64,000 nucleotides of DNA from a virus (IMGVR_UViG_3300003320_000853); one strand, 5' to 3'. Shown: positions 3,430 through 63,626, counted from the first letter of the stretch. A program made the numbers and translations. The notes: generated from the letters alone by a model not told the origin.

Positions 3430-3684
3430 TCACAGGCTTTCCTCCTCATCGAGGCGCTCCCAGGCCGTCGGAGCCGTCGAGGGAGGGGGCGGGAACGTGA
3501 GACGCCACATGGACAGGTCGGTCTCCAGGAAGATTCGCGTACTCTTCCGGATGCACACCTCGGGATCCCCATCGTAGAAGCTCGGGAAGCCCGTATGTTC
3601 CCACAGGATGTGCTCGGCGAAGTCCTTCGGAAGGGCAATGAAGAGCTGACGGGCTTCGTCCTGGACGATCTCGACGCCCGTCAC
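3430..3684 (-). CDS. Hypothetical protein with the shared C-terminal tag (PTAWERLDEEESL)
   Basis: GTG start overlaps the stop of the CYTH gene; tag follows a Pro-rich linker. Confidence 0.7.
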   Translation of the reverse strand: MTGVEIVQDEARQLFIALPKDFAEHILWEHTGFPSFYDGDPEVCIRKSTRIFLETDLSMWRLTFPPPPSTAPTAWERLDEEESL

Positions 3685-4244
3685 CGGAGGTGCCCGCAGT
3701 CCGGGCACGCCACGATCTGGTCAGGGATGCTCTCCGGACCATCATCGTCGTCGCCCTCGATGAAGATCATCCCCTTGCCACCACAGCGGCAGGGGAACTT
3801 CGGGATCTCGCGGGAGCGGGCCAGGTTGACGTTTTGGAAGCGCGGGTCGAGGGATACCTCCTCGCCGACCCACTCGGGCTTGCCGTACTCCTGATCCTCC
3901 GAATCCAGCTCGATCTCGGCGAGCCAGAAGCCCTGGAGGTGCCCGTGGAACTCGTCGACCTCCCACGGCGAGTTTAGAAGGCGGTGCCGCGTCTTCTCCA
4001 GCCGGAGAGGGCACATCGCGAGCATCTTCTGTGCGATCTCACGGCTCAGGGGGAAGCTCCATTCCTCGCGTGAGATGAGGCCCTTGCCCTTGATCGTGAG
4101 CTCGTTCCCGACGACGACGCTCGACGAGAGCCGGACGCGCACCAGAGGGTTGAGGCTCAGGTACCCCTGGACGATACGGGCCGAGAAGAGACGTTCCGTA
4201 GGGAGCTTCTCGACGTTGACCAGGAACTTGCGCTCGATCTCCAT
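3681..4244 (-). CDS. CYTH-domain (triphosphate tunnel) protein
   Basis: MEIERKFLV, QGYL, VRVR, LTIKG, EKTR, WEVDEF, LAEIEL signatures; short C-terminal Cys pairs. Confidence 0.9.
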   Translation of the reverse strand: MEIERKFLVNVEKLPTERLFSARIVQGYLSLNPLVRVRLSSSVVVGNELTIKGKGLISREEWSFPLSREIAQKMLAMCPLRLEKTRHRLLNSPWEVDEFHGHLQGFWLAEIELDSEDQEYGKPEWVGEEVSLDPRFQNVNLARSREIPKFPCRCGGKGMIFIEGDDDDGPESIPDQIVACPDCGHLR

Positions 4245-4606
4245 CCTTCACCTCTCGGGTCCGTACACCAGACGGCTCATGAACACGTGGGCAGCGCCGC
4301 TCTGGCAGTATCCCTTACGGTGAGGCCATGGGACGGCGCCGCAGAAGCATACGCAGCGGGACGCTCGAACCTTGCGCATCACCCGGCAGAGAGGTCGGCC
4401 GGGCCGGCATCCTTTGATGTGCCGATCCTTCCAGCACCGCTTGCGGGGCATCGCCCGGGGCTACACCGTGGGCTCGTGGGCTCGTGCTCCTGGCTGAACC
4501 GAGCACCGACCGTCGTGAGGTGGCGTGCGGCTTCATCGAAATCCATGCCCTACCCTTACACCAACCCCCAGGTTGATCGAGATGGTGTAGAGGCTGTACA
4601 ACCTAC

Positions 4607-5191
4607 ATGAAACTCGCTCGGCACTATCAGACCGTTACGGAAAAGGCCCTCGATGCGAAGAAGGCCAGAGACAAGGAAGCCGCCATGGCTCAGCTCAGAG
4701 AGCTGGAGCCCCAGGTCGAGGGAGCTGCAAACGACGGCAAGTTCACCTTCTCCACCACCGAGCGTCTGCTCCCCTTGACCGTCGCCATGCTCATCGAGCT
4801 GGGATACGCAACCAAGGAGCGCCAGGACAACGGCAACTTCCCGGACGCCTCCCGCCCGATCTGGGACATCTCTTGGGGCGAGTTCGCTCGCCCTGTCTCC
4901 ACGGAGCGCAGGGACAGGGTCTTCGTGGTCATCGGCAAGACGGGCCAGTACGAGGACACCACCGAATGGTACGTCTGCGCCTTTGGGACGCACGAGGACG
5001 CCCTGGATCTCAGCAATCGGCTCAATGCGTGGTGCCGGGATCACGGGTGCGATGCACGCCCCTACGTCGGCGTGCCGACCGACCATCCCCCCGAGGACCC
5101 CGCCTTCCGTTGCATTGACACGGGCGTCCAGTACCACATCCACGAGATCCCCCTCTATCTCTCAGGAAAAGGTATGTCCATCCCGACATGA
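4607..5191 (+). CDS. Two-domain hypothetical protein
   Basis: Class I promoter. C-terminal half aligns by eye with 21746..22021; N-terminal half resembles 43814..44227 and 44231..44722. Confidence 0.75.
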   Translation: MKLARHYQTVTEKALDAKKARDKEAAMAQLRELEPQVEGAANDGKFTFSTTERLLPLTVAMLIELGYATKERQDNGNFPDASRPIWDISWGEFARPVSTERRDRVFVVIGKTGQYEDTTEWYVCAFGTHEDALDLSNRLNAWCRDHGCDARPYVGVPTDHPPEDPAFRCIDTGVQYHIHEIPLYLSGKGMSIPT

Positions 5192-5583
5192 CCCTTCGCT
5201 TCGTGAACCTGCTCGCTTGGTGGCGGCGCAAGGTGGCCGTCGAGAGCTTTTCCACGCCCAAGCTCTCGGACGGAACCCTGATCACGATCGACGAAGGGGA
5301 CGGCACGGAGCCCCAAATGCTCGCTCTCACCCGGAACAACCTGTGCTCCATGGCGTGGGTCATCCGCGAGGCCGATCGGCGGGGCTTGAAAAACGTCTCG
5401 CTCACCCTCGAAGTGCCCGAGGGGCCCGACGTCTGGTCTCAGACGCTCACGGTACCCAACTGGGCCAAGAGGAAGCTCTTCCGCGAGGTCATCGCACGGG
5501 CCCTCGCGCTCGGCTGGAAGGGCGAAGTCTACCACCCTTCTCCCACGGCATGGGATCAGCTTTTGAGGGATGAGGGTCTCTAG
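5188..5583 (+). CDS. Hypothetical protein with the shared C-terminal tag (PTAWDQLLRDEGL)
   Basis: ATGA overlap with the upstream gene; tag at the stop. Confidence 0.75.
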   Translation: MTLRFVNLLAWWRRKVAVESFSTPKLSDGTLITIDEGDGTEPQMLALTRNNLCSMAWVIREADRRGLKNVSLTLEVPEGPDVWSQTLTVPNWAKRKLFREVIARALALGWKGEVYHPSPTAWDQLLRDEGL

Positions 5584-16260: not shown

Positions 16261-16681
16261 CATGGTTGATCGTGGTGCCCTTGGGCCTGTAGGAGGAGCA
16301 TGAACACGCCCTTCCAAATCCTCGCCCCCATCTACGTGAACATTGCCCAGGCGGCGGACGACCTCATCGCGAGTCTCTGCGCCCTCCGAAACCGGAACAG
16401 CTACATCGAGCGCTTGATCCTCCGCGCCATGGTCGACGAGATCACCGCCGACCGTGACGCCCTCTTGGGCGCCCTGCTGGCCCACCACGGGTGGACGGCC
16501 CAGGCCTTCGCGGATGTTGCCTGGTCGGACGAGGGCGACGCTTTCGAGGCCCTGCACGCGTACGTCGTCTGACCTTGAGCCCCACAAGAGCGGTTCTGGA
16601 CGGAAGCCAGAACCGCTCGACTATCATTTCCGCCCCCGCCCGATCGCCGAAAGGTGCGTATCCAATGGATGCACACACCTC

Positions 16682-18355: not shown

Positions 18356-18718
18356 ATGAACCCCGAGCGTGAAGCGATGGATGCCGAGTTCGGCGCTTTC
18401 GAGAACGAGTTCCAGGCGGCGTTTGCCCTCTCCCAGATGGAGGCGCCCGCGGACGACCGTGCGGAGATCGAGCGGGCGGTGAAGGCGGGCCGCTTCGTGG
18501 TGGTGGCTTCGACGCCCCGCTACTGCGCCCTGACGGACGCCCTCATGGGCGAGTTTCTCACCCTTCTCTCGGAGCACTCGACGTTCGAGGAGGCCGAGGC
18601 GGCCATGGTCAACGCCCTGGACGAGGGGGACGTGTGGTACACGGTGCGCGGGCCGAAGGCGGCGCCGGCCACCGTGGTGCCGTCGGGCGACGAGGACGAG
18701 GACAACATCCCGTTTTGA
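18356..18718 (+). CDS. Acidic hypothetical protein ending in an SSB-tail-like DEDEDNIPF
   Basis: Class I promoter at 18321; C-terminus resembles the bacterial SSB tail DDDIPF. Confidence 0.7.
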   Translation: MNPEREAMDAEFGAFENEFQAAFALSQMEAPADDRAEIERAVKAGRFVVVASTPRYCALTDALMGEFLTLLSEHSTFEEAEAAMVNALDEGDVWYTVRGPKAAPATVVPSGDEDEDNIPF

Positions 18719-19233
18719 TGGGCCTGGCGATGAAGGTCATCACGTACATCTCCCCGGGCGATTTCACCGCCGAGGACACGCTCGTCTGGGACGTCGTTCG
18801 TCGGGAAGCTCGTCGCCTTGGGCTTCCTGACGAGCTCTACATCGTCAACACGGGCCGCCGGAACCCGGCGGCTCTCAACCGTATCTGCGCCGTGCTGGAG
18901 GTGACTGTCGGAGTGCACGGGTTCCAGGTTGTCGGGCCACGACACCCATTGTTCCAGGCACTCCACTTCGACAGGCAGCTCCGGATCGGGCGGATGACCG
19001 TCCGGGATGATGGGATCGTCCAGGTGCGGCCCCGTGTCTGGTCGAGCATCAACGCCGATTTCCGGGACGATCAGGACAACCTCGACGACGAAGCCATGTT
19101 CCCTGGGATCAAAGAGTTCAAGCTCACGGCGCGGCAGATGTCCGACCTCGGGATGGACGAGGTCGAGGAGGAGCCGGCGCCATCGGTGCGGCCCACGGCG
19201 TGGTCGCGTCTCTTGGAAGACGATGCGTTGTGA
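18718..19233 (+). CDS. Hypothetical protein with tag (PTAWSRLLEDDAL)
   Basis: TGATG overlap; tag at the stop. Confidence 0.7.
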   Translation: MGLAMKVITYISPGDFTAEDTLVWDVVRREARRLGLPDELYIVNTGRRNPAALNRICAVLEVTVGVHGFQVVGPRHPLFQALHFDRQLRIGRMTVRDDGIVQVRPRVWSSINADFRDDQDNLDDEAMFPGIKEFKLTARQMSDLGMDEVEEEPAPSVRPTAWSRLLEDDAL

Positions 19234-19562
19234 CCGATCGGGAGCCGACCTACACTGTAGTTTTCTTACCGCATGATGGTCGGCAGCCCTGGCGTCGGGA
19301 CAACCTGACGTTGGAGCGGGCGGCCTACTTCTGCGGGCGGGATGCGGTAGAGGCGCTCTTGGTCGTGCGGAACCAGGAGCCGACGGACGGCCGCGAGTGG
19401 CCTTGGTGGCCGCTCTTGAGGCGTCTCGGTTTGATCCCGCTGGCGATCCACCCGCGCATCGTGGGGCACGTCTCTCTTCGTGGTGTCGTGGTGATCGGGT
19501 ACATTCCGCCATTGCTGGCTCCTACCTCGTGGGAGCATTTGCTGGGGGAGTCACAGCTATGA
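19230..19562 (+). CDS. Hypothetical protein with tag (PTSWEHLLGESQL)
   Basis: GTGA overlap; tag at the stop. Confidence 0.7.
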   Translation: MTDREPTYTVVFLPHDGRQPWRRDNLTLERAAYFCGRDAVEALLVVRNQEPTDGREWPWWPLLRRLGLIPLAIHPRIVGHVSLRGVVVIGYIPPLLAPTSWEHLLGESQL

Positions 19563-19789
19563 ACTACACGGCAATTTTTCACGGGACCCGAAGGGTATCT
19601 CGGGTCGAGGTGGCGTCGATCCCTGACGTCCAGACGAAGCTCATGCGGCTGAACGAGGCGGCCAAGGCGCCGTTCTACGCTGAGCTGTACTCGGGAGACA
19701 AGCTCGTGGCGCGGGTCTATCCGAAGAGTGTTGCGTGGGTCGAGCGACCGGACGCGTGGGCGCATCTTTTGGCCGACGACGGGCTCTAG
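19559..19789 (+). CDS. Hypothetical protein with tag (PDAWAHLLADDGL)
   Basis: ATGA overlap; tag at the stop. Confidence 0.7.
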   Translation: MNYTAIFHGTRRVSRVEVASIPDVQTKLMRLNEAAKAPFYAELYSGDKLVARVYPKSVAWVERPDAWAHLLADDGL

Positions 19790-20106
19790 GTTGATCGGGG
19801 AGGGATCCGGACTGTAGGAGAGGCATGAACACGCCGCGCATCATCGACGCCAAGGTCACCAACGAGAACGGCCGCTACGTGGTCACGCCCGTGTGGAGCG
19901 GGGTGGATCGTCCCGAGACGGGGAGCATCAGCACGGGGAAGACCAGCACGCTCGCTTTCCGGCTGGCCCAGGCGATGAAGTCGGGCCAGGCCTACGAGCG
20001 CGTCGAGGTCGTGACGGACGTGAACGGCAAGACGTTCGTTTCGGCCCTGCCTCGCTTCCGCGGGCGGTGTCTGAACGCCGATCTTCTGCGTCTTGGGTTC
20101 TAGGCC

Positions 20107-20427
20107 ATGCTTGGCAGGCCTCTCGCGGAGATCCGATACATCGTGGTCTTCGTCCCGGTCGAGGCCGGCGAGCAGGTTCCTGCGGGTACATGGTTTGATG
20201 AAGGGCTCTCGATCTCCGAGATCGACCGCATCTGCAAGTCTACGCCGGCCCGGGCTTCGCTCTTCCAGATGGAGGACGTCGCTCGGGTCAAGCGTCTCGC
20301 CATCATCCCCCATGGGGGGATCGGACCAGGCGAGGTCTACCAGCTTCAGTGGGCGGAACAGGAGCGATTCAAGCGGGAGAGTAGGGACACAGGGTGGGCC
20401 CAACTTCTTCGAGACGAATTTGGGTGA
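20107..20427 (+). CDS. Hypothetical protein with tag variant (DTGWAQLLRDEFG)
   Basis: Follows 19825..20103; tag at the stop. Confidence 0.65.
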   Translation: MLGRPLAEIRYIVVFVPVEAGEQVPAGTWFDEGLSISEIDRICKSTPARASLFQMEDVARVKRLAIIPHGGIGPGEVYQLQWAEQERFKRESRDTGWAQLLRDEFG

Positions 20428-28701: not shown

Positions 28702-30177
28702 CTAGAGCTCATCGTCCATCAGGTGCTCGAACGCGGTGCGCCGGACGACCTTCCTCCAGATCCCCGAGGCGAAGTCTCTGAGCGGGATGGAGCGTCGCCG
28801 CTTCACCTTCCGATCCACGACGTGGACGATCTCCCTCGCGACGTCGACGGTGACGACTTCGATTTCGGTCTTGTCGGTCAGGTGCTCCCATTCATCCCCG
28901 GACACGGGCAAGACTTCCGGGACAGAAGGCGCGTCACCTTCCACGATCGACCATGCGCGATGGAGATTCATGAAATCCGCGTAGAGCATCGTGTTCCGCT
29001 GTTCGGGAATGCCATCGTCCGTGGCCGACGCCCGACGGAAGGTGACCGCTTCGCCCCCGTAGGACGTCGACGGACGGCCCGTGACCTCGACGAGATCCCC
29101 CGTCGCCCGGTTCACCCAGAGCGAGCGGGCCGTGGGGATGCCCAACGCTTCCCCGTCGACCTCGGGCGGCTCCGGCACCGGCACGGAGGGCGCCACAGGA
29201 GGGTTCCGGGGGAAGCTCGGCGGGTTCGAGGTGTACACGACGCCTGAGCGAACCGGGAGGATGTCTCCGTTGAGGTTGCGCCGTCCAAGCTCGACCTCTT
29301 CGCGGAGAGCCTCCTGCGGACCCCGGACGAGTTCGAGGAGAGCGTTGTGCGTCGAGGGTGCTGGACGGCCCGGGGCGCCCCCCAGACGGGAGACAGGGGA
29401 AGTCGAGACGCGGCCCACATCGCGAGATTGGATCGCGATCGAGTGAAGACTTTCGGGGCCTGTCACCACGTGAATCGGGACGCCTTGAAAGGCGCGAGCT
29501 CCGAGAGGCCCGCCGATGACCTCTCGCTCGTGGGTGCGATAGAAATGACCCCAGACCTGTGGGGTGACGTCGATCCTACGGATGGGGATCAGGTTCGCCT
29601 CCATGTAGGTGCGCAGCTCGATCATGGTGTCCCAGAACCATTCGTCCGTGTGGGTTCCGGGGGGCTCGGCCACCGTTCCCCACTGGTAGCTGCACTTCGA
29701 GCAGCTCCACACGTGGAACGTTCCGTTCCGGGTCACGTTCGACGTTGCTCGGTCGTCGCATGCGGGGCAGCCGTCGTTGACGATGGGCTGCGGAACCTCG
29801 GCCGCCCCCGGGTGCTCGCTCATGTCGAGCGTCGCCGAGGTCCCGATGGGCATGTGGCGGGGGCAAACCCATTCCGGGGTCGCGTCGCGATCCATCCGGA
29901 AGACTCCCGCCAGCCGGCAGCCTCGACGAGAACACCCCATTCCGTGGGTCGGCGCGGCTTGAACAAACCTCCACAAATCAATGCGGTTCGCGGGAACACG
30001 GGTTCGGTTGCCCGTCATGCTGACGAGGGTGATGACGTTGGGCGCAAGCTCGGCGACGACAGCCCGAGCGGTACGCCCGGTGAAAGGGTCGGTCGTTTCC
30101 CACAGCTCGCAGACTTGCGGATCTCCGCTAGGCACCGTGAACCTCCACCATGATCCCCCGAACAGAGTTTCCTCCAT
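28702..30177 (-). CDS. Multidomain hypothetical protein with Zn-finger Cys pairs and tag (RTAFEHLMDDEL)
   Basis: Start placed at ATG 30177 because the longer ORF overlaps the divergent gene 30253..30570; CPAC..CSKC; tag at the stop. Confidence 0.65.
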   Translation of the reverse strand: MEETLFGGSWWRFTVPSGDPQVCELWETTDPFTGRTARAVVAELAPNVITLVSMTGNRTRVPANRIDLWRFVQAAPTHGMGCSRRGCRLAGVFRMDRDATPEWVCPRHMPIGTSATLDMSEHPGAAEVPQPIVNDGCPACDDRATSNVTRNGTFHVWSCSKCSYQWGTVAEPPGTHTDEWFWDTMIELRTYMEANLIPIRRIDVTPQVWGHFYRTHEREVIGGPLGARAFQGVPIHVVTGPESLHSIAIQSRDVGRVSTSPVSRLGGAPGRPAPSTHNALLELVRGPQEALREEVELGRRNLNGDILPVRSGVVYTSNPPSFPRNPPVAPSVPVPEPPEVDGEALGIPTARSLWVNRATGDLVEVTGRPSTSYGGEAVTFRRASATDDGIPEQRNTMLYADFMNLHRAWSIVEGDAPSVPEVLPVSGDEWEHLTDKTEIEVVTVDVAREIVHVVDRKVKRRRSIPLRDFASGIWRKVVRRTAFEHLMDDEL

Positions 30178-30946
30178 CCACGTGCGCCTTGCACGATCGC
30201 GGGGTGGTGACCATGCTCGACGACTACACCGGGCCGGTGTACCAGGATCGGGATGAGCAACGACATGAAGGACAACCCGTGCGACGGGAAGGACGTGGTC
30301 ACGCTGGGGCCCGAGATCACACCGGGGGTGCATCCCTGCGTTCGCCACAATGCGAACCACGAGATCACCGTAGGGGTGCTCCACGTCGTGAAGGACGGCG
30401 ATCCCGTGCCGGAGAACGCCCTCATCCTTCAAAAGGGAGAGGGCACGACGTACCACGTCGTGGGCGAGGCGAAAGCCACCTCGCATGGCCCGGCCCAGGT
30501 GGCCACCGACACGTACCGCCGGAACTGGGAGTCCATCTTCGGGGCCCGTCAGGTCGTCGGCCAGGCTTGATCCGAGGGTCTCCTCTCCTGTAGGAGGACC
30601 GTGCCGCGACGCCTTCCCCTCATCTGCCCCTCGAATTCGAGGGGCGTCGCCGACTTCCACACGAAGCCTTGCAACGGCAAGGCGTGCTCATGGTGGAAGA
30701 AAGGCGAGAACCTCTGTGGCGCCATCGCCACGCTCGACGACTACGCTCGGTGGGAGAAGCCAGAGACTCCGCTACCTCACTGCCCCATCACGGCTTCCTG
30801 CACGTGGGACGTCCAGGAGATCGCTCAGGGCCGGCGCGGATGCGTCCCGCGCCGGCTGGGCCTCGTCTGTGAGCATCAGGCGGGAGAGCCCGGCGTGGAC
30901 CTCGACACCGCCATTTGGAACACCTTCGAGATGGCGGACCCGGACG

Positions 30947-31201
30947 ATGCCGAAGCCTGGGGATAGCTGGTTCATCTTCAAGAAGCTCGTCTTGCTCCAC
31001 ATCGAGGAACACCCGGGCGTGCGATCCGGTGATCTGATCGAGGCGTTCAACGCCGACGACAACTTGATCATGGAGTGTCTGGACGTTCTGCTCTCTCAGG
31101 GATCGATCAACTGGATCGAGGAACCGCGGATGACCTGGCGGTACTACGCCAGCCGGAGGCCGACCGCTTGGGAGGTTCTTCTCCAGGATGACGTGGTGTA
31201 G
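30947..31201 (+). CDS. Winged-helix-like protein with tag (PTAWEVLLQDDVV)
   Basis: IEEHPGVRSGDLIEAF..CLDVLLSQGSI pattern. Confidence 0.65.
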   Translation: MPKPGDSWFIFKKLVLLHIEEHPGVRSGDLIEAFNADDNLIMECLDVLLSQGSINWIEEPRMTWRYYASRRPTAWEVLLQDDVV

Positions 31202-31213
31202 GCTCCCGAGACG

Positions 31214-31483
31214 ATGCCGAAAAGGGTGACCATCCGAGATGCTGTGCTTCGCTACGTGAGATTCAACTCGGGACGCACTGCGACGGAGATCGCCAAGGAT
31301 ATCGGGAGGAACGTCGGTTCCGTCTCTTCGGTACTCAACCATCTCCGGGAGGAAGGCGAGGTCGAGTACGCACCGAAACGCGGACCCCGGGGCGGCTACA
31401 CCTACCGCATCCCGGCGGCCAAGCTCGCCCCGACATCCAACAAGACCTCGTGGGCTCATCTTCTCGACGAGGACGACCTCTGA
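31214..31483 (+). CDS. Winged-helix DNA-binding protein with tag (KTSWAHLLDEDDL)
   Basis: TATEIAKDIGRNVGSVSSVLNHLREEGEV HTH; class II motif. Confidence 0.8.
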   Translation: MPKRVTIRDAVLRYVRFNSGRTATEIAKDIGRNVGSVSSVLNHLREEGEVEYAPKRGPRGGYTYRIPAAKLAPTSNKTSWAHLLDEDDL

Positions 31484-53907: not shown

Positions 53908-54714
53908 ATGGACATTGCCCGACTCATCACCGCCGCCGAGGAAACCCAACGGAGACTTTACGCCTCCCTTCCTTGGGGTTATCGTGTCGCTCAGCTCTTC
54001 ATGGTGCTCTCTCTCGACACGACAGAATCCTTCGGCCGCGCGATCATGGCGGAGTTCCTCCTCAAGGGTGTGACCGGGATGCCCGATCCCGGCCCCCGTT
54101 GGAACGCTTCCTCCAAGAAGCCCGCCGACACGCTCCCCCGGGGTTACGGCCGAGACTTCGCCGACAGGGTGTACAAGACCCTGCTCGGGAAGTTCCGCGA
54201 TCCCGATCTCGCCGAGAACGCGATGATGGACTTCCTCATCCGGTTCACCCTCCAGGGGGGATCGTCCCACATGCACCCGGGGACGAGCTTCGACCAGGCG
54301 AAGCAGTACGTGATGCAGGGGGTCGTTCGCCAGGGCATCAACATCGTCCAGGAGAAGACGCGGCAGCGGCAGCGCGAGAAGCCGACGTACCAACAGGACG
54401 ATGAGGGTGAGGAGCAACAGATCGACTTCTCGGATCCCCATGCCTTCGAGGATCTCGCCGATCTCATCCCCCAGCACCAGCTCAAGGCGCTCCTCGCCGA
54501 TCTCTCCCGCAAGGTGCATCCCGACGCCGGGCTCTACATCAAGCTCCTGACCGAGGGGTACAACGAGAAGGAGATCGTCGGCGATCCGGCGAAGGGCATC
54601 GAGGGGAAGCTCCCTCACTACAATTCGTCTCCGCAGAGCTGGAACGCAAACTGGAAGCCGAAGATCCTCAAGTACCTCCAGGAACGTGTCGAGCACGGGC
54701 TCCAGGCAGCCTGA
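53908..54714 (+). CDS. Second, divergent sigma-factor-like protein
   Basis: VYKTLLGKFRDPDLAENAMMDF..SFDQAKQYVMQGVVRQGINIVQEKTRQR; EGYNEKEI. Confidence 0.5.
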   Translation: MDIARLITAAEETQRRLYASLPWGYRVAQLFMVLSLDTTESFGRAIMAEFLLKGVTGMPDPGPRWNASSKKPADTLPRGYGRDFADRVYKTLLGKFRDPDLAENAMMDFLIRFTLQGGSSHMHPGTSFDQAKQYVMQGVVRQGINIVQEKTRQRQREKPTYQQDDEGEEQQIDFSDPHAFEDLADLIPQHQLKALLADLSRKVHPDAGLYIKLLTEGYNEKEIVGDPAKGIEGKLPHYNSSPQSWNANWKPKILKYLQERVEHGLQAA

Positions 54715-54734
54715 TCCTCGGTGTAGAAGTCTGC

Positions 54735-56021
54735 ATGCGGTATCGCGACCAGCTCGCGCTCCTCCAAAACCGGCACGTCATCGGCGACAACCACGAAGAG
54801 CTGAAGAAGCTTCCGGCGGACTTCTTCCACTGCGCGGTAACGAGCCCGCCCTACTTCGGTCTCCGGGACTATGGGACGCGCCGATGGTTTGGTGGGGATC
54901 CGAAAGACGAGCCGTGCCCTCACCTCTTCACCAAGGAGCACGGGCCGCACCACCCGGGCCAGGTCGAGCAAACGAAGTGGAAGACGGCCCAAGCGGCCGG
55001 CAAGGGGCAGACGGCGACGACCCTTTCCTGTGTCCAGTGCGGCGCCTGGTACGGTCAGCTCGGCTTGGAGCCCACCCCCGATCTTTACGTGGAGCACCTC
55101 GTCGAGGTCTTCCGTGGGGTGAAGCGCGTTCTCCGACCGGATGGCGTCTTCTGGCTCAACGTGGGGGATAGCTACGACAAGGAGAAGAGCCTCATCGGGA
55201 TCCCTTGGCTCGTGGCGCTGGCGCTACGCAAGGACGGATGGCTCATCCGACAGGAGATTGTCTGGGAGAAGCCCAACGTCATGCCCGAGAGCGTTCGGGA
55301 TCGTCCGACGCGGGCTCATGAGCAAGTCTTCCTCCTGACGAAGAACCGCGACTACTTCTACGACCAGGAGGCGGAGCGAGAACCCTATCTGATGGTGCCC
55401 CAGAGCCGGCCTAATGGACACAAGCGACGCCGGCCGGGGATCGAGCTCTACGAGCATGTGTGGGAAGGTACCATTCGAGATACGCCAGGATATGATGGCG
55501 GATCGTCTGGTCGCAACCTTCGCACCGTGTGGAAAATCAACCCCCAGCCGTACCACGGGGCGCACTTCGCTGTCTTCCCGATGAAGCTTCCTGAGCGCTG
55601 CATCAAGCTCGGGACGAGTGAGCATGGGGCGTGCGCCGCTTGCGGAGCTCCTTTCGAGCGGATCGTCGAGCGGGTCGTTCCAGAGGCTCCGCGGTTCGAG
55701 GAGAACGTCGTCCCCAACAACACGCCGCACCAGCGGTTCTCATGGGAGCAGCAACGGGTGCGGGACGAAAACCCGCCGGTGACCATCGGATGGGAGCCGA
55801 CGTGCAAGTGCAAGGCGAGCATCGCACCGTGCGTCGTGCTTGATCCGTTCCTCGGCAGCGGGACGACGGTGGCGGCGGCCATCGGCCTTCTCCGGACGGG
55901 CTTCGGCATCGAGATCAACCCTGCGTACGAAGAACTCATCGTCGAGCGGAAGCAAGAGCCCCTGGATTTCTCTGGGGATCGGTCTGCTTACGAGGCTGCG
56001 ATGGCTATGGGAGAGTCATGA
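54735..56021 (+). CDS. DNA amino-methyltransferase (N4-C/N6-A, beta order)
   Basis: VTSPPYFGLRDY, IVWEKPN.MPESVRDR, HFAVFP..L..CI, VLDPFLGSGTT. Confidence 0.92.
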   Translation: MRYRDQLALLQNRHVIGDNHEELKKLPADFFHCAVTSPPYFGLRDYGTRRWFGGDPKDEPCPHLFTKEHGPHHPGQVEQTKWKTAQAAGKGQTATTLSCVQCGAWYGQLGLEPTPDLYVEHLVEVFRGVKRVLRPDGVFWLNVGDSYDKEKSLIGIPWLVALALRKDGWLIRQEIVWEKPNVMPESVRDRPTRAHEQVFLLTKNRDYFYDQEAEREPYLMVPQSRPNGHKRRRPGIELYEHVWEGTIRDTPGYDGGSSGRNLRTVWKINPQPYHGAHFAVFPMKLPERCIKLGTSEHGACAACGAPFERIVERVVPEAPRFEENVVPNNTPHQRFSWEQQRVRDENPPVTIGWEPTCKCKASIAPCVVLDPFLGSGTTVAAAIGLLRTGFGIEINPAYEELIVERKQEPLDFSGDRSAYEAAMAMGES

Positions 56022-56494
56022 CGCCGGAGGAAGTCCGTATTCGTCTGGGGTTTCGACCTTGGCCCGAGTTTGCCTCCGAGATCGCGAGCCAGAACCCTGA
56101 CACGCCAGCGGAGCGTTGGCGGAGGACAGGACGGACGACGCAGAGCCTCGTCCGGGCGGTGTCCGAGCTGACGGAGGGTCGCGACGTTTTGATCCTTGCT
56201 TGGTCTCGGGACGCTTCCGATCGGCATCTGCGGACGCTGCACGAATACTGGTTCAGGGTCTCTGTCAACATTGACAGTCGTCGAACCCAGATCCTAGCGC
56301 TTGGGAGAGATGCTGAAGTCAGCCTCGCGGGCTTCGACGGTTGGTTGGTGATCGATCACTACATCGAAGAGATGTTCCCGAATAGGGTGAGAAGTCTGAG
56401 ATCACTGTGGCGACCTCCGACCGAGAAGTCTCCTCCACCCGCCATCTACCGTCCGACGTCTTTCGAGCTTCTTCTTGCCGAAGATCCCTTCTGA
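56018..56494 (+). CDS. Hypothetical protein with tag (PTSFELLLAEDPF)
   Basis: ATGA overlap; tag follows a Pro-rich linker. Confidence 0.7.
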   Translation: MTPEEVRIRLGFRPWPEFASEIASQNPDTPAERWRRTGRTTQSLVRAVSELTEGRDVLILAWSRDASDRHLRTLHEYWFRVSVNIDSRRTQILALGRDAEVSLAGFDGWLVIDHYIEEMFPNRVRSLRSLWRPPTEKSPPPAIYRPTSFELLLAEDPF

Positions 56495-56524: not shown

Positions 56525-57367
56525 ATGCGCGAGTTGGTCATCACGCCGCCGGAGCGGAAGGACGGCAAGGAGTCGAAGGGGCGCGCCTTCCGCGCCTTTC
56601 ATCTCGCTCACTTGAAGGCGGACGCCTTGTGGGAGGGCGGCATGACGGAAACGGAGGCGATCCGGCCTGTGTGGCTCATGGTAGGGGGCTCCGAGACCGA
56701 GATCCGGCCCTTCGTCACGAACCTCATGCTCGGCAAGAAGGCCGATATGCCCGGCCGCTTCCGGAGCGAGGGCAAGCGTTTCGAGCTGCTCAAGAGCGCC
56801 GGCTACCAGTACATCTGGCAGCGCATCCCCGAGAAGGGGCCCGATGGTCGTGTCGACGTCAAGGCGATCGTGATGGCCTTTCTGCCCGACCTCTTCCGGA
56901 TGGACCTCGGCATGGTCGATCCGGAAGGCGTGAACTTCTGCCTGCTCCCCACGAACGAATGGGTCGGGCAGTCGACCATCGATCCGAACCCTTCGGTCGT
57001 GCATGTCCGAACGGCTTTCGGCAAGGTGGGGATCCCGATTCCGGACGATGACCTCCGTCAGCTCGTTCCCACGGCCATCCTCTTCTGTGCCTTCCTCGAT
57101 CGCCGGACGCGGTGCCCGCTCATTGCCGACACGTGCTTCTACCTCCAGCTCTTCTGCTCGGCCCTGGCACAGGGGATCGCAGGATGGACGCGGGGAGATG
57201 CTCACAACACTTGGGGACGGCACGCGAACCTCTACCTGGAAGAGGTGGGGATCGAGGATGTGCGGATCGGTCTCGGGGTCGCATGCAAGGCGACCCATGG
57301 GGAGCTGGAGACGTTTCTCGCCGAACAGGTGAAAATCTACTTCGAGGTCAAGAATGGCGCGGCTTGA
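56525..57367 (+). CDS. Hypothetical protein upstream of the MTase-helicase
   Basis: 280-aa ORF; class II motif at 56508. Confidence 0.7.
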   Translation: MRELVITPPERKDGKESKGRAFRAFHLAHLKADALWEGGMTETEAIRPVWLMVGGSETEIRPFVTNLMLGKKADMPGRFRSEGKRFELLKSAGYQYIWQRIPEKGPDGRVDVKAIVMAFLPDLFRMDLGMVDPEGVNFCLLPTNEWVGQSTIDPNPSVVHVRTAFGKVGIPIPDDDLRQLVPTAILFCAFLDRRTRCPLIADTCFYLQLFCSALAQGIAGWTRGDAHNTWGRHANLYLEEVGIEDVRIGLGVACKATHGELETFLAEQVKIYFEVKNGAA

Positions 57368-60300
57368 ATCCATCGCAATCGGGGGCTATTACCCGACACC
57401 CAAGCGCGTGATCCCCTACATCGCGGCGCTTTTCGACGTGCCCGATATGTCTTCCCCTTCGGCCTATTCCTCGTGGGATCGGAATGGGGTTGCTTTCCTC
57501 GACCCATGCGCAGGCGACGGCGAAGCGGTTCTGACGTTCGCCAAGTGCCTCTTCGGCGATCTCCACACCCGAACGGTCGACTTCGATCTCTACGCGGCAG
57601 AGATGGAGGAGTCCCGCTTCAAAGCTCTCCAGGAGAGATGCAAGGGAGAGGATCTGCCCTATTCCTCCTTCTCGAAGGGCCTCGTCCATGGGGACGCTTT
57701 CCGCATCGTGTGGAAGTTCGACTACTCCAACAAGGGCGCGAGCTGCCTCTGGCTGAACCCGCCCTACGACATCGACCGCGAGATGGGACGGCTCGAAGAG
57801 CGCTTCCTCCGTCGCTTCACATCTGCGCTCGCCTTTGGCGGGGTCCTCGTCTTCATCATCCCGGTGACGGCGCTCCGGGCGTCGGCGAAGACCTTGGCCA
57901 AGGAGTACACGCACATACACTGCTTCCGGTTTCCCGCGCCGGAGTACGAGGCTTACAAGCAAGTCGTGGTCGTCGCGCAGCGGACGCAAGCCCTGTTCGA
58001 GCCCGACGAAGAGAACGTGGAGAGGATCCTTGGATGGGCGTCGAATCCTGAGACGATCGACGTTCTCCCGGGTTCGGAGATGGGGATCGAGGATCCCGTC
58101 GCTGCGCTCCTCGCCGATCCCCTGGCGGAGCAGGTTCTCTCTCTGCCGGCGATGCGAGCGAGCACGGTCGGCTTCTCATCTTGGGAGATCGTGGCCGTCG
58201 ATTTCTACGGGCTGCTCGCCAAGGCTGCGCCTTGGTGCGCGACCGATCGGACCGGGAAGGTGTCCCCTGTCGTGGGCATCCTCCCCGAGGCGCCGGCCGA
58301 CGACCTCCTTATCCGTCGCTATCCCCTCGCGATGCCTCCTCGCTCGGCCCACATTGCGGCCGGCATTGCCGCGGGGATCTTCAACGGGTTCCGTGTCTAC
58401 CCCGACGACCCCAAGCTGGGATTGCCTCCCCTTCTCGTGAAGGGCGTCTTCGATCGCGAGTATCGGACGGTCGACGAGAAGCACAACAAAGATGGCGAGA
58501 AGATCGGAGAGATCCAGGTTCAGCAGCCGAAGCTCGTCACGACGGTGCTCGATCTGACGACCTTCAAGTACGTCACGATCCAGCCTCGCGCCGATAAGAC
58601 GGGGTCGCGGGACATCACGACCATGACGATGGCCGACCTCCTCGAATACTACGGCCGCAGCCTCATGGAGGTCATGCTCAAGCAATGCCCCGTGCTTCAC
58701 GACCCGGGCCGCGAGGAGGATTGGATCAGGCTGGCGCCGCTCAACCGGACGATGTTCAAGGCTCAGAGCCACGCGGCGGCGGCGGCCGTCAAGCTCCTCG
58801 GCGGGCTCAACGTACCGATGAAGGATCGCTACGGCAAGACGGTCTTCGCCCTCGGGGAGATCGGCTCGGGCAAGACGACGCTTGCTCTCGGAGTCGCCAA
58901 GACGATCGGCTCGAAGCGGATGCTCGTTCTCTGCCCTCCGCATCTCCTCGACGGATGGAAGGACCAGATCCGCGAGGTCATCCCCGAGGCGCGTACGGTC
59001 GTCCTCCAGGACGTGAGTGATGTCCAAGCGCTGGCCGAGGACACCTCCCCCGGCATGGTGATTTCGATCGTCTCCCGCGAGACGGCGAAGCTTGGGCACG
59101 CTTGGGGAGCCGTGGAGAAGTTCTGCCCGAAGTGTGGGTCTCGCGTTCCCACGAACATCGATCTCGTCAAGACACGGGCCCGGTGCTCGGAGGCGCCTGT
59201 GCTCTCCAACGAGATGGGCAGGATTGTGTGCGACCTTGCTCTCGCGCTCGTCCCCCGATTCTACGACGTTTCGCGGATCAAGCAGCTTCTCTGGACCAGG
59301 CCCCTTCGCCGGTGGCCGGGCATCCTCCGCAAGCGCGGGGTCGACGAGTCCGAGGCCTGGCAGAAGATCGTATCGTCGGGGATCATCGAGAAGACGATCG
59401 ATCGGCTCATCCCCCATCTGGAACGTGAGCACGTGGTCCAAGCGATCGAGTTCTTGCTCCTCTCGAATCGAGATCAGGATCTCGTCGCTTGCGTCGCCGA
59501 GAAGGTCTACAGGTGGACCCTCCACGACGTGCAGACGTGGGGGCATTGGGCCACGGTGCGGACGCGGGCGGTGGGTCTCGCCCTCATGCTCGACGACGAA
59601 GCGGCGCGGTCCAAGCTCACAGAGCTCTTGTGGTCGATGAGCCCGGAGAACGGATCCTCGTACAACGCCTACTACCAGGGGCCGAAGGACTACCCGACGC
59701 GCATCGAGGCGAAGTATCGCGAGCTGTACCACGGGGAGAAGCTCGGACACTCCGACTCATGGTCGTACGTCGAGAAGGGCGGGGAGGGCCTGGAGTGGGC
59801 TGAGATCCCTGAGAAGCCGGAAGCCATCATCTCGGCGGTCGCGTCTCTCATGACTGCTTCCAGCTTCCGGCTTGGGGAGGTCTGCGGGGAGCCTCTCTTC
59901 GAGGCCCGGCCCGATCCTCGCCGGTTCCCTCTGGCTCAGTACATCTGCAAGAAGTACCCGGCTCTCTTCGATCTGCTCGTCCTCGATGAGGGGCACGAGT
60001 ATGCGACGGACGGCTCCGCTCAGGAGCGGGCGGCCCATCGGCTCACGTCGCTCGGGCTGCCGACGATGCTGCTCACGGGCACGATCATGAACGGCTATGC
60101 GGAAAGCCTGTTCACGAACCTCTGGTACCTCTCGCCGGCCTTTCGCGCCGAATTCGCCAGGGAGGAGCGCCAGAAGTTCGTTGACCGCTACGGCTATCGG
60201 AAGCGCATGGTCGAGAACCGGGACGATGATGGAAAGGTTGTCGCCTTCGGGTCGGTGACGGATCGTGTCGAACGTCGGGAGAGGATGCTCGGCAACGCTC

Positions 60301-61355
60301 CTGGTGTCCTTCCCGTTCTGCTCTTGAAGCACCTTCTTCCGATCGCGGTCACGCTCCACAAGGCGGATCTGGCTGTCGATATTCCTCCGTGCGCTGAGAT
60401 GGTCGAGGGAATCGAACCAGAGGCGACGCTCCTCGAAAACTACCGACATCTCCAGAAGAAACTCGTCGATCAGATCAAGAAGGACCGCTACGACGAGGAG
60501 AAGAGCGGCAAGCTCCTCGGGGCGCTCGCCGAGCTGCCTGGCTACCTCGATCTCGCGACGAGTGACACGGGCAACCGTGACGATGGATCCTACGAGATCC
60601 GCTACCCTGAATCGGTCGGCGGCGGTCTCGTGGCCCGTGTCGACCCGTTCCCTGCGTCGATTCTCCTCCCGAAGGAGAAGTGGGCCCTGGAGATCATCGA
60701 GGCCGAGCTTCGCGAGGATCGGAACGTCCTCTGGTTTGGCTGGCACACGCGGCTCCTCTCGCGTCTCTCCCGCCTCGTCGAGGAGAATCTTGGGATCAAG
60801 GCGCCCATCCTCTACCCGGACAAGGTGAGCACGGGCAAGCGCCAGAAGTGGATCGATCAGGAGGTCGTCGGTCGGAAGCGCCGGGTACTCATCGTGAATC
60901 CCGTCTGCGTCCAGACGGGGCTCAACAACCTCGTCTACTTCGCGACCAACATCTGGCATGAGAACCCGGCGTGCAACCCGGTGGTGAAGCGCCAGGCGGA
61001 CGGCCGTATCGACCGCGTCGGGCAGACGGTGAACACGAGGATCCGCTTCCCGATCTACGAGGGGACGGCCCAGCAGCACCTTCACTCGCTCCTCATGCGC
61101 AAGGTTGCGGTGTCGATGTCGACGGACGGGCTCGACGCCGAGGCGGCTCTCCAGGCGGCGGGCATCGGGCAGGACGACGGGTTCTCGGCTTTCTCGGTCG
61201 GGCGCCAGCTCTACGAGATGATCGTCTCGGGTCGGGAGCTGCCCGCGCTCACCCGGACGAAGAAGGCGCTCACTGAGACGAAGGTATCCCTCGCCAAGCC
61301 GCCCCCCATCATCACGGAAGCGGACATCTTCGAGTTCGCGATGTCCCTCGGGTGA
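57354..61355 (+). CDS. N6-adenine MTase-like domain fused to an SF2/SNF2-like helicase
   Basis: GYYPTP, LDPCAGDG, LNPPY; GEIGSGKT, LDEGHE, LTGT, QTGLN, QADGRIDRVGQ. Confidence 0.85.
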   Translation: MARLESIAIGGYYPTPKRVIPYIAALFDVPDMSSPSAYSSWDRNGVAFLDPCAGDGEAVLTFAKCLFGDLHTRTVDFDLYAAEMEESRFKALQERCKGEDLPYSSFSKGLVHGDAFRIVWKFDYSNKGASCLWLNPPYDIDREMGRLEERFLRRFTSALAFGGVLVFIIPVTALRASAKTLAKEYTHIHCFRFPAPEYEAYKQVVVVAQRTQALFEPDEENVERILGWASNPETIDVLPGSEMGIEDPVAALLADPLAEQVLSLPAMRASTVGFSSWEIVAVDFYGLLAKAAPWCATDRTGKVSPVVGILPEAPADDLLIRRYPLAMPPRSAHIAAGIAAGIFNGFRVYPDDPKLGLPPLLVKGVFDREYRTVDEKHNKDGEKIGEIQVQQPKLVTTVLDLTTFKYVTIQPRADKTGSRDITTMTMADLLEYYGRSLMEVMLKQCPVLHDPGREEDWIRLAPLNRTMFKAQSHAAAAAVKLLGGLNVPMKDRYGKTVFALGEIGSGKTTLALGVAKTIGSKRMLVLCPPHLLDGWKDQIREVIPEARTVVLQDVSDVQALAEDTSPGMVISIVSRETAKLGHAWGAVEKFCPKCGSRVPTNIDLVKTRARCSEAPVLSNEMGRIVCDLALALVPRFYDVSRIKQLLWTRPLRRWPGILRKRGVDESEAWQKIVSSGIIEKTIDRLIPHLEREHVVQAIEFLLLSNRDQDLVACVAEKVYRWTLHDVQTWGHWATVRTRAVGLALMLDDEAARSKLTELLWSMSPENGSSYNAYYQGPKDYPTRIEAKYRELYHGEKLGHSDSWSYVEKGGEGLEWAEIPEKPEAIISAVASLMTASSFRLGEVCGEPLFEARPDPRRFPLAQYICKKYPALFDLLVLDEGHEYATDGSAQERAAHRLTSLGLPTMLLTGTIMNGYAESLFTNLWYLSPAFRAEFAREERQKFVDRYGYRKRMVENRDDDGKVVAFGSVTDRVERRERMLGNAPGVLPVLLLKHLLPIAVTLHKADLAVDIPPCAEMVEGIEPEATLLENYRHLQKKLVDQIKKDRYDEEKSGKLLGALAELPGYLDLATSDTGNRDDGSYEIRYPESVGGGLVARVDPFPASILLPKEKWALEIIEAELREDRNVLWFGWHTRLLSRLSRLVEENLGIKAPILYPDKVSTGKRQKWIDQEVVGRKRRVLIVNPVCVQTGLNNLVYFATNIWHENPACNPVVKRQADGRIDRVGQTVNTRIRFPIYEGTAQQHLHSLLMRKVAVSMSTDGLDAEAALQAAGIGQDDGFSAFSVGRQLYEMIVSGRELPALTRTKKALTETKVSLAKPPPIITEADIFEFAMSLG

Positions 61356-63358
61356 CCATGAAGAACATCATCGAAGAGAAGTGGGGTCGCCTCGTACATG
61401 GCGACTGCCGAAACGTGCTCCCTACGCTGGCGAGCGACAGCATCGACGCCATGGTCACCGATCCCCCGGCCGGCATCGAATTCATGGGGAAGGACTGGGA
61501 CAACGCGCTCAAGTTCGGGGAGACGTTTGCATCCCACGGGTTTTCGGATGGTGGGGAACGCATCCCGGCGCCGGCTCAGAAGCTCTCGGAGCGGAACCCC
61601 GTTTGCAAGAAGTGCCGCAAGCACATCCGCGGCGCGGATGGGTGCCAGTGCCAGGAGCCCGAAAGCGACGAGCCCCCCGAGCTCATCCGGGAGAGGCGTC
61701 TCCAACAACGGCAAGGCTTCATCACGTTCATGGAGTCGGTCATGAAGGAGAGCTTCCGGGTCTTGAAGCCCGGGGCTCACGCCGTCGTCTGGGCGCTCCC
61801 GCGGACGTCCCACTGGACGGCTACCGCTCTGGAGAACGTCGGCTTCGAGATCCGGGACTGCATCTACCATGTGAAGCCGCGGAGCCCGGAAGTCATCGCC
61901 TTCCTCGAAAGTCTCTCGCCCGAACAGTGGGAGCTCCTCCAAAGATGTTCTCCAACCGATTCCTGGGTGATGCAAGTGTTCGGATCTGGGTTTCCCAAGT
62001 CTCTGGACGTGTCGAAGGCGCTCGACAAGATGGCGGGCGCCGCTCGGGAGGTGTTGGGACCAGGGAATAGACATAATTCCAGGCCCTTCGGTGAGAAGGC
62101 CGGGGATGTCGACTATGACGGTGGGATCTTTGCTGGGGGTGTCCCTCCAATCACGGCGCCGGCAACGGACGAGGCGAAGCTATGGGCTGGGTGGGGAACT
62201 GCACTGAAGCCTGCCGTCGAGGTGTGGTGGGTCGCCAGAAAGCCCATCCGAGAGGTCAACGTCGCGACTCAGGTGCGGAAGACCGGGACAGGCGCCCTCA
62301 ACATCGACGGGACGCGGGTCAAGCATGCCAACGCGGCGGACTTCGAGCGGCACAAGGCTCAGGTCGATCGTATCAAGCAAGAGGGGGGATCATGGGAGGG
62401 TAGCTGGAAGAACAGCTCCGACCTCTCCGGTGCGAACGAGGTCACGACGGCGGGCCGGTGGCCGTCCCACATTCTCCTGAGCCACGCTCCCGGCTGCCAG
62501 CAGGCCGGAACGCGAGAGGTCAAGACTGGCACGGCGGTTCAACGCAACCGGGATGGTGGCGTCCACAACCAAGTCTACGGCGAGTACCGCAAGCCTCCTG
62601 TGGAGGACGCGACCTATGCGAACGGAGACGGCACGGAGACGGTCGACGCTTGGGAGTGCTGCGCCGAATGTCCGGTTCGCATGCTCGACGACCAGAGCGG
62701 GGAGACTTCCTCCGGTGCCATGAAGCACGAGGTGGGATCCTACGGGGGAGATTCCGTCACCGGCTTTCTTAGAGGTCGGTCGGGACCCTCGAACCAGCAT
62801 GGCGATGCGGGCGGAGCTTCTCGATTCTTCCAGGTATTCGAGCATGAGCCGCCCTTCGTCTACGTGGCCAAGGCCAGCCGCGCCGAGCGGGACGAGGGCA
62901 TCAAAGGCGAGACGAAGACGCGGCGGGCCGTCCAGTACGGAGGCAAAAAGCAGCGGCAGTGCAATGTCTGCGGTTCTCGCTCGGGACCGAGCAAGGAGGG
63001 GCAGAGCTGGCCCACGTGTGGACACGAGGACTGGCGGTGGACCGAGCAGCTCGACGAGGGTCACAAGGGCGGGAACGCGAAGAACACGCACCCCACCGTC
63101 AAGCCCATCAAGCTCATGCGCTACCTCGTGCGTCTCGTGACTCCCAAGGGAGGGACCATTCTCGATCCCTTCTCTGGATCAGGATCGACCCTTCTCGCCG
63201 CTCTCTTGGAGGGTTTCAAGTTCCTGGGTATCGAACGTGAGGAAGAGTACGTCCACATTGCCGAGGAGCGTCTCCAGCATCACGCCCAGGAGGAGCTGGG
63301 GCGTCAAAGCGAAGAATCCGTCTTCGATCTCCTCTCCGAACTTGAGCAGGAATTCTAG
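61352..63358 (+). CDS. DNA amino-methyltransferase (beta order) with Cys-rich insertions
   Basis: VTDPPAG, FRVLKPG, FGSGFPKS, HPTVKP..LMRYLVRLVTP.GG.ILDPFSGSGST. Confidence 0.9.
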   Translation: MTMKNIIEEKWGRLVHGDCRNVLPTLASDSIDAMVTDPPAGIEFMGKDWDNALKFGETFASHGFSDGGERIPAPAQKLSERNPVCKKCRKHIRGADGCQCQEPESDEPPELIRERRLQQRQGFITFMESVMKESFRVLKPGAHAVVWALPRTSHWTATALENVGFEIRDCIYHVKPRSPEVIAFLESLSPEQWELLQRCSPTDSWVMQVFGSGFPKSLDVSKALDKMAGAAREVLGPGNRHNSRPFGEKAGDVDYDGGIFAGGVPPITAPATDEAKLWAGWGTALKPAVEVWWVARKPIREVNVATQVRKTGTGALNIDGTRVKHANAADFERHKAQVDRIKQEGGSWEGSWKNSSDLSGANEVTTAGRWPSHILLSHAPGCQQAGTREVKTGTAVQRNRDGGVHNQVYGEYRKPPVEDATYANGDGTETVDAWECCAECPVRMLDDQSGETSSGAMKHEVGSYGGDSVTGFLRGRSGPSNQHGDAGGASRFFQVFEHEPPFVYVAKASRAERDEGIKGETKTRRAVQYGGKKQRQCNVCGSRSGPSKEGQSWPTCGHEDWRWTEQLDEGHKGGNAKNTHPTVKPIKLMRYLVRLVTPKGGTILDPFSGSGSTLLAALLEGFKFLGIEREEEYVHIAEERLQHHAQEELGRQSEESVFDLLSELEQEF

Positions 63359-63377
63359 TTGGCCTACCGTGCCGCCC

Positions 63378-63626
63378 ATGCACATCGAAAAGTTCAAGGC
63401 GATGGATCGGGCAGGCCGGAAGGAAGTCCTCCAGGAGATGCACAAGGAGCGGATCCGGCTGGAGGGGATCCGCACACCCGAAGAGATGGAGCCCCTCCTC
63501 GACGAGATACACAGGTTCGAGGAAGAGCACGAACGGGCGAAGAACCCGGAATATATTCCGGTTCCTCGTCGGAGGCCGAAGCCGACCTCGCCGCCGACCT
63601 CCTGGGCCGTCCTTCTGGAGGACTAG
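63378..63626 (+). CDS. Hypothetical protein with tag (PTSWAVLLED)
   Basis: Helical charged body, Pro-rich linker, tag at the stop; start uncertain. Confidence 0.65.
   Translation: MHIEKFKAMDRAGRKEVLQEMHKERIRLEGIRTPEEMEPLLDEIHRFEEEHERAKNPEYIPVPRRRPKPTSPPTSWAVLLED

Follow-up and report, generated by a model that had tools for sequence, protein, structure and literature searches.

In a stretch of viral DNA of 64,000 nucleotides (IMGVR_UViG_3300003320_000853; the whole stretch is termed the window here), 16 open reading frames (ORFs) with unrelated bodies end in a common 13-residue peptide, Pro-Thr-Ala-Trp-Glu-His-Leu-Leu followed by an acidic end. The carriers of this tag make up ∼12% of the window genes, about one in eight. 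We suggest that the tail acts as a docking motif, short, linear and portable, that takes many fast-evolving accessory proteins to one reader, and we put the probability of this reading at about 0.6. The source phage is uncultured, with a genome of ∼377 kb (one window protein sits on a 376,986-bp contig). Literature searches found no description of the motif, and a profile of the tails compared with the PDB sequences found nothing.

The tails of the window follow the consensus [PK]-T-[AS]-W-[EA]-x-L-L-x-[DE]-[DE]-x-L, and the threonine lies 9–14 residues before the stop codon in all 16 carriers. A loose regular expression finds 19 matches in the six frames of the window, 16 of them with the threonine at this distance upstream of a stop. 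Using a position-specific scoring matrix (PSSM) for the tails, 15 matches fall within 20 residues of an ORF end (7,970 positions), compared with 1 in 83,795 internal positions. The terminal enrichment over internal and shadow-frame positions has an odds ratio of 158 (Fisher P = 1.8e-15), and the sole internal match is in a non-coding shadow frame opposite the rIIB-like gene. Thus the motif is not equally frequent at internal positions or in shadow frames. All 16 tails listed in the initial annotation of this DNA are present, although they are not all alike: those of genes 33053–33397 and 37542–37838 are weaker. Its statement that the carriers are otherwise dissimilar is borne out by an all-against-all BLASTP comparison, in which similarity is confined to the last 13–19 residues. 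So is the Pro/Arg-rich linker, since the 11 residues preceding the tag are 20% proline and 13% arginine, compared with 6 and 8% overall. The carrier size of 76–490 amino acids (aa) given there needs one qualification. The minus-strand gene ending at 28702 reaches 652 aa by its longest ORF, and the likelier start gives 397 aa. The end of the tail is loosely defined; the last residue varies (L, G, V, P, F or D), and 3–10 residues follow the Leu-Leu.

In each conserved column of the tag the third codon position varies most, and the codons differ in 51% of the pairs with the same residue. Threonine is encoded by ACG, ACC or ACA, alanine by all four of its codons and leucine by CTC, CTT, TTG or CTG. 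Since the third positions vary, selection acts on the peptide, as had been proposed. The tagged genes have a lower G+C content at third codon positions (0.78 versus 0.85, P = 1.5e-5). The carriers are as follows, with two further possible cases outside the 16 at the end.

3430–3708, minus strand, tagged gene downstream of the CYTH/Zn-ribbon gene 3681–4244; tail PTAWERLDEEESL
5188–5583, plus strand, tagged gene, 131 aa; tail PTAWDQLLRDEGL
18715–19233, plus strand, tagged gene, 172 aa, first of three tagged genes coupled behind the single-stranded DNA-binding protein (SSB) gene 18356–18718; tail PTAWSRLLEDDAL
19230–19562, plus strand, tagged gene, 110 aa; tail PTSWEHLLGESQL
19559–19789, plus strand, tagged gene, 76 aa; tail PDAWAHLLADDGL
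20107–20427, plus strand, tagged gene, 106 aa; tail DTGWAQLLRDEFG
28702–30660, minus strand, tagged gene containing a Zn ribbon, longest ORF 652 aa, likelier start at 29895 giving 397 aa; tail RTAFEHLMDDEL
30947–31201, plus strand, tagged gene, 84 aa; tail PTAWEVLLQDDVV
31214–31483, plus strand, tagged winged-helix protein, 89 aa; tail KTSWAHLLDEDDL
31483–31794, plus strand, tagged gene, 103 aa; tail PTAWEHLLQDEGL
31794–32072, plus strand, tagged gene, 92 aa; tail PTAWEHLLRDDGLG
33053–33397, plus strand, tagged gene, 114 aa, last gene of the PTH2 operon; weaker tail KTVWEHLEEVLP
37542–37838, minus strand, tagged gene, 98 aa; weaker tail PTSWEHLEGGAFG
39320–40267, plus strand, tagged gene, 315 aa, with fragments of the major capsid protein; tail EVWWEDLLRDDFADL
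56018–56494, plus strand, tagged gene, 158 aa, coupled behind the N6/N4 DNA methylase gene 54735–56021; tail PTSFELLLAEDPF
63369–63626, plus strand, tagged gene, 85 aa; tail PTSWAVLLED
61352–63358, plus strand, DNA methylase, 668 aa, outside the 16; possible degenerate tail ESVFDLLSELEQEF
16300–16572, further weak candidate; ends DAFEALHAYVV

Nearly all of the carriers, in the window and in its relatives, lack a Pfam domain, the exceptions being the winged helix and a radical SAM enzyme. The tagged genes form runs (18715–20427 and 30947–32072), as originally noted, and mostly occupy the second or third place in an operon. They are never first behind the CTGTAG motif, and the abundant leaderless motif CTGTAGGAG-N-ATG directly precedes none of them, in keeping with the earlier statement that no tagged gene is the first behind a promoter of this class. 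A broader TGTA expression that also catches GGTGTA matches upstream of 2 of the 16 tagged genes (both through GGTGTA), compared with 49 of 111 untagged genes (P = 0.016). The full form of the first motif, TCG-N(∼13)-CTGTAGGAG-N(4–5)-ATG, stands before ∼45 genes with no Shine-Dalgarno sequence (starts for example at 6999, 7219, 16300, 17260, 18135, 18356 and 19825), and these genes often begin MNT or MST. GGTGTA occurs at –16/–17 ahead of ∼18 genes. From their fixed distance to the starts, the two motifs look like phage-specific promoter classes for leaderless mRNAs.

The anatomy of the tag supports the earlier suggestion of an N-capped amphipathic helix with an acidic end. The T-A-W-E core that follows the proline reads as a classical S/T-x-x-E helix capping box. 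Counted from the threonine, the tryptophan is at N2 and the Leu-Leu at N5/N6, on one face of the helix; the acidic residues after them number two or three and lead to a loose hydrophobic end. In the variant PTWHERLL the tryptophan is one residue earlier, while the register of threonine, glutamate and Leu-Leu is unchanged. An AlphaFold model of the 37542 family has a body with a pLDDT of about 90, whereas the last 15 residues fall from 70 to 52 and have no packed structure. Foldseek finds no significant match to the body in the PDB, only weak winged-helix resemblances.

How widely is the tag distributed? Relatives were retrieved from IMG/VR with degenerate DNA patterns for the tag, and the whole records were then scanned with PSSM cut-offs that differed between scans: 12 for the window, G001 and G002, 11 for G004 and 10 for G003. 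Four related genomes carry the tag.

G001, 529 kb, 64% G+C: about 9 C-terminal tags
G002, 275 kb, 58% G+C: 19 C-terminal tags, 1 internal
G003, 407 kb: 11 C-terminal tags in the 90 kb sampled
G004, 437 kb, complete, 55% G+C: 21 C-terminal tags and 22 internal, plus several weaker C-terminal tags

The pooled consensus of 36 tails from four genomes is P-T-A-W-E-R/H-L-L-x-D. In G004 the terminal position is less strict; its strongest non-terminal matches are real copies of the tag, either 22–51 residues from the end or N-proximal, as at about residue 40 of a kinase-like protein. Neither the PSSM nor a de novo k-mer test, which recovers the tag in every tag-positive genome, found it in G005 (448 kb, complete), in LR745208.1 or in Tunturi_5. 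The last of these, a Tunturiibacter phage, is the only cultured relative found. Across 185,579 cellular genomes the pattern TAW[DE]xLLx[DE][DE] has 35 matches, about the number expected by chance, of which three are within 20 residues of a stop. A scan of five genomes for a variant tag, [TS]RF[DES]R, found nothing.

The tag-bearing phages have many proteins in common with the window and with one another. They also have in common a major capsid protein of 299 aa, with at least 89% identity in the best 80 of >590 related IMG/VR contigs; the identity is 82% in LR745208.1, 47% in Tunturi_5 and 39% in Bacillus phage G. The tag is confined to a subclade of the phage-G-like huge phages. Between G001 and G002 the capsid protein is 95% identical (G002 gene L019:7634-8533), and other core proteins are 40–65% identical.

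Within this subclade the tag is retained while the bodies diverge, orthologues keeping it at 30–74% body identity. All seven homologues found of the winged-helix family (31214–31483) carry the tag, down to 30% identity, and the tryptophan is among ten invariant columns. Three more orthologue pairs keep it. The G001 orthologue in the 28702 family has the tail SVYDRLIGDEDL, and the arrangement of a methylase gene followed by a tagged gene seen at 56018–56494 recurs in G001, again with the tag. The 37542 carrier is 44% identical to its G004 orthologue, whose tail is PTMWDIIIED. This family also bears on the question, raised at the outset, of whether homologues in other phages lack the tag. Of 16 homologues, 13 stop right after the conserved body (...GKRILVIG), before linker and tag, and three carry both; the contigs with the untagged homologues (67 kb in all) contain no tag. 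Since these 13 end where linker and tag would start, the tag is a grafted module. Whole genomes therefore either have this appendage or lack it.

The tag also has a flavour that differs between genomes, and that is common to the unrelated proteins of each: PTAWEHLL in the window, KKSVWEHLL in G003 and PTAWERLL in G004. Position +4 is histidine in 8 of 15 window tags and in all 11 from G003, and arginine in 18 of 22 from G004 and 7 of 10 from G001. At position –1, lysine occurs in 9 of the 11 G003 tags and proline elsewhere, and at +1 valine replaces alanine in 7 of the 11. Given the diversity of codons, recent copying explains this concerted flavour less well than co-evolution with a reader specific to the lineage would.

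We infer that the tag docks on a common reader. A flexible Pro/Arg-rich tether would be followed by a helix of one to two turns, N-capped by the threonine with the glutamate at N3, that presents the tryptophan and Leu-Leu on one face, with the acidic run and the loose hydrophobic end coming after. The phage would graft this tail chiefly onto the C-termini of fast-evolving accessory proteins encoded second or later in operons, and a single reader with a hydrophobic groove flanked by basic residues would recognize all of the tagged proteins. The flavour points to a reader encoded by the phage rather than a universally conserved protein of the host; together with the lack of a terminal motif in cellular genomes, it makes a co-evolving, phage-encoded reader the most likely. 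The N-proximal and internal copies in G004 argue against a strict C-terminal degron, so that a docking motif is favoured over a C-degron threaded into a pore.

Which protein might be the reader? Tentatively, the leading candidate is the clade's own ClpX with its ClpP-docking LGF loop. ClpX is the most natural choice because it reads terminal peptides and takes SspB-like tethers; tethered in this way to ClpXP, the tagged proteins might be short-lived substrates or might act as SspB-like adaptors. ClpX is encoded in G001–G005, with a zf-C4_ClpX zinc finger, an AAA_2 domain, the GYVG pore loop and an [LVI]GF ClpP-docking loop. It is present in the four tag-bearing relatives examined, and absent from the tag-free LR745208.1 and Tunturi_5. 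The genes are at 163370–164623 in G002 (L025:11376-12620), 54555–55898 in G001 and 40704–41993 in G004. In these proteins the RKH loop is replaced by sequences of the RGQMK, RGMGK or QGHGR type, and the LGF, VGF or IGF loop is kept. A co-fold of the ClpX zinc-binding domain (two copies plus zinc) with a 36-residue tagged tail of G004 gave a score of 0.03, where the mark is 0.32, and counts neither way.

An SspB-type adaptor of Escherichia coli ClpXP has a substrate-binding body, a long flexible linker and a C-terminal ClpX-binding XB peptide. The XB peptide is basic-hydrophobic (LRVVK), and the ssrA tag ends LAA-COOH. The tagged proteins resemble such an adaptor in having a folded body, a flexible linker and a terminal peptide on a floppy tail, in phages of which four tag-bearing relatives encode ClpX, and the ClpX of G001–G005 should be able to dock ClpP. 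They differ in that the tag combines Trp/Leu with an acidic run and a variable end, and in that there are dozens of carriers instead of one adaptor, with ClpX binding only presumed. Nor does the tag have the conserved last residues with a free carboxylate of an ssrA-type degron.

Several points weigh against the docking reading or its ClpX version. G005 has a ClpX that is 52% identical, yet has no tag, and ClpP is found only in G001. The variable last residues of the tail and the N-proximal and internal copies in G004 are unlike classical C-terminal degrons of ClpX. In principle, tag DNA copied from gene to gene in one genome could also account for the concerted flavour, although the diversity of codons argues against recent copying. 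Lastly, in coupled gene pairs the acidic tag codons give GAGG or GGAG ∼8–12 nt before the next start. They thus double as a Shine-Dalgarno sequence, so that part of the acidic conservation may lie at the level of the RNA.

Other candidate readers, comprising the capsid protein, a hidden clamp, a 527-aa AAA protein beside PolA and the families absent from G005, gave no decisive signal. There are 17 families that are present in G001, G002 and G004 but not in G005, including a peptidoglycan glycosyltransferase, a lytic transglycosylase, a dNMP-kinase-like protein and several of no assigned function. None has a peptide-binding signature or a Pfam match; two are missing from the tag-bearing G003, and two have tag-like ends themselves. 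The glycosyltransferase is PBP1-like with an N-terminal membrane anchor, and it and the lytic-transglycosylase-like protein are encoded at 66.1–72.7 kb in G004, 285.9–295.8 kb in G001 and 197.8–219.1 kb in G002. The small membrane protein encoded by 1409–1756 was considered as a reader and rejected, being present in the tag-free G005 and absent from the tag-rich G004.

By analogy, the tag should work like known address and docking peptides, but it lacks the defining features of sequence or position of each of those compared. Could it be a signal for loading into the capsid? The tail would then bind the procapsid interior, through the major capsid protein or a scaffold, and the carriers would be packaged and injected with the DNA. 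Cargo, flexible linker and short C-terminal peptide is the architecture of encapsulin cargo; like the tag, the peptides of family 1 encapsulins and of microcompartments follow a linker (Pro/Gly-rich) on unrelated cargo, and in family 1 one HK97-fold shell protein reads the peptide. A C-terminal tail likewise targets the HK97 protease to the procapsid interior. The small HK97-type capsid protein of these phages is extraordinarily conserved, as given above, compared with about 50% for other core proteins, and two tagged orthologues contain fragments of it. Moreover many carriers look like anti-defence or take-over orphans, which would benefit from early delivery. Yet the flavour of the tag differs among genomes with capsid proteins that are 90–95% identical, which is not expected were this protein the co-evolving reader, and G005, which has this capsid protein too, is free of tags. 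The tagged genes are co-transcribed with those for SSB, rII-like proteins, nucleotide metabolism and methylases, and not with the structural module. The Gly/Ser-rich LTVGSL(K/R)-type consensus of encapsulin cargo is unlike PTAWE[HR]LL and its acidic run; none of the tagged genes has a shell gene next to it, and the virion capsid protein, encoded far from the tagged arrays, is the only protein of the HK97 type. The capsid-targeting sequence of phage T4 (IPI–III, Alt) resembles the tag in that one short peptide addresses several unrelated phage proteins, but it is N-terminal and is cut by the prohead protease, whereas the tag is C-terminal (rarely internal) and has no cleavage signature. On balance we consider delivery through the capsid unlikely.

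It is less likely again that the tail recruits its carriers to a DNA-handling hub of the phage, such as a hidden sliding clamp, SSB, a helicase or an RNA polymerase factor. The SSB gene has three tagged genes coupled behind it, others follow DNA methylases, two carriers are winged-helix proteins, and G002 has two small tagged genes between those for a DnaB-like helicase and PolA. A clamp-loader homologue is present with no recognizable clamp, so that a divergent clamp may exist. However, Pfam PF00712 and PF02768 find no clamp in seven genomes, PHROGs found none in G002, where ten proteins encoded near the clamp loader and PolA were scanned, and the great majority of carriers are orphans without a DNA-handling domain. 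The core replication genes are, furthermore, common to the tag-free G005. The motif fits no known clamp-binding consensus (bacterial QL[SD]LF; T4 SLDFLFG-like), having no glutamine and a Trp-x-x-Leu-Leu followed by an acidic run. Nor does it fit the SSB tail (DDDIPF), since only the phage SSB ends in this way (DEDEDNIPF) and the tags have a Trp-Leu-Leu core on proteins other than SSB. Closest in kind are the tails of gp43, gp33 and gp55 of phages T4 and RB69, where an extreme C-terminal hydrophobic/acidic tail docks unrelated phage proteins on one phage hub. These are found on a handful of replication and transcription proteins, however, whereas the tag is on ∼12% of genes, mostly orphans, and its consensus differs.

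A bolder form of the ClpX idea, which we regard as improbable, is that the tagged proteins are interchangeable substrate receptors. Their orphan bodies would each bind a different host protein, for example one of defence, and the tail would tether them to phage ClpX and host ClpP. This would be analogous to the poxvirus and lentivirus adaptors that hijack cullin ligases. The poxvirus ankyrin/PRANC proteins, with their C-terminal F-box-like module, are likewise large, fast-evolving viral sets with one C-terminal docking module, and eukaryotic motifs of the W-acidic and LxxLL types may be likened to the tag as Trp/Leu amphipathic helices in an acidic context. The PRANC likeness is a eukaryotic analogy, and involves a folded domain of about 40 residues compared with a 13-residue peptide. 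If true, bacteria would be host to a viral system of targeted protein degradation in which each phage genome supplied dozens of SspB-like adaptors.

That the tag has no reader at the protein level, and is a by-product of a nucleic-acid signal at gene ends (ribosome-binding site, terminator or promoter), of a nascent-peptide effect during termination or of common descent from a duplicated C-terminal segment, might be suggested by the Shine-Dalgarno-like codons of the coupled pairs, by identical promoter-like DNA after two tags and by an imperfect inverted repeat holding the tail at 33362–33397, but is very improbable: the 10 of 16 tags without a coupled downstream gene keep the acidic run all the same, the best-conserved residues (Thr, Trp and Leu) belong to no ribosome-binding site, third positions vary freely, the peptide is conserved across genomes of 55–64% G+C with different codons, the tags, unlike arrest peptides, have variable terminal residues and lie at a variable distance (9 to 19 residues) from the stop, and the carrier bodies are unrelated and have untagged homologues.

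The remainder of the window (64% G+C; ∼125 densely packed and for the most part small genes) provides the setting for the tagged genes. Searched by Megablast, the phage and plasmid collections gave no match to the window and no close relative of it, and an exact 50-mer of the window was absent from the JGI metagenome contigs. Its products include an rIIA-like ATPase (35832–37370, minus strand) besides the rIIB-like protein, an ArdC-like protein, PRPP synthetase, thymidine kinase, dCTP deaminase, a dual-specificity phosphatase, two N6/N4 DNA methylases and a 1333-aa methylase-helicase. The last of these has a second common ending, TEADIFEFAMSLG (61314–61355), that is shared with a 193-aa protein (38458–39039; tail TEGQIFDLAMTLGERGHEKG, 38980–39039). 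Only two window proteins are common to G002: the 115-aa multi-pass membrane protein of 1409–1756 (plus strand; 59% identity), and a CYTH domain fused to a zinc ribbon (3681–4244, minus strand; 44% identity).

Adjoining the operon of the PTH2 peptidyl-tRNA hydrolase (32718–33056, plus strand) is a 75-nt tRNA gene (33400–33474, minus strand) with the anticodon UCA, which reads UGA. The large window genes have no in-frame TGA, and therefore the genome is not recoded overall. The weak tail of the last gene in this operon, WEHLEEVLP, abuts the tRNA gene; its inverted repeat arises because the WEHLL codons, read on the opposite strand, give EEVLP, and it may double as a hairpin. The 315-aa carrier 39320–40267 contains only the N-arm of the capsid protein (residues about 8–78) and a short C-terminal piece (about 254–277). 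Its G004 orthologue (111116–112105, minus strand) is tagged as well, and G002 has two repeats of another segment of the capsid protein at 57199–58149. An ATPase beside this second capsid-like gene is not borne out here; the gene that follows encodes thymidine kinase in the window, and the neighbour in G004 encodes an SPFH protein. G004 also has a type I-C-like CRISPR-Cas module (Cas8c/Csd1, Cas7 and a Cas3-like helicase) at 101.7–108.2 kb, flanked by repetitive arrays at about 100–101.5 kb and 109–111 kb.

If the tag has one reader, ∼10–15% of the proteome in a widespread clade of huge phages of soil and freshwater would be under a single undescribed address code. By means of the tail, hundreds of orphan genes could be grouped in a single functional class. 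The 13-residue tag could serve to fish for its reader, and may be a portable tag for engineering. Given that tag-bearing and tag-free relatives present a natural contrast, the question is directly testable.

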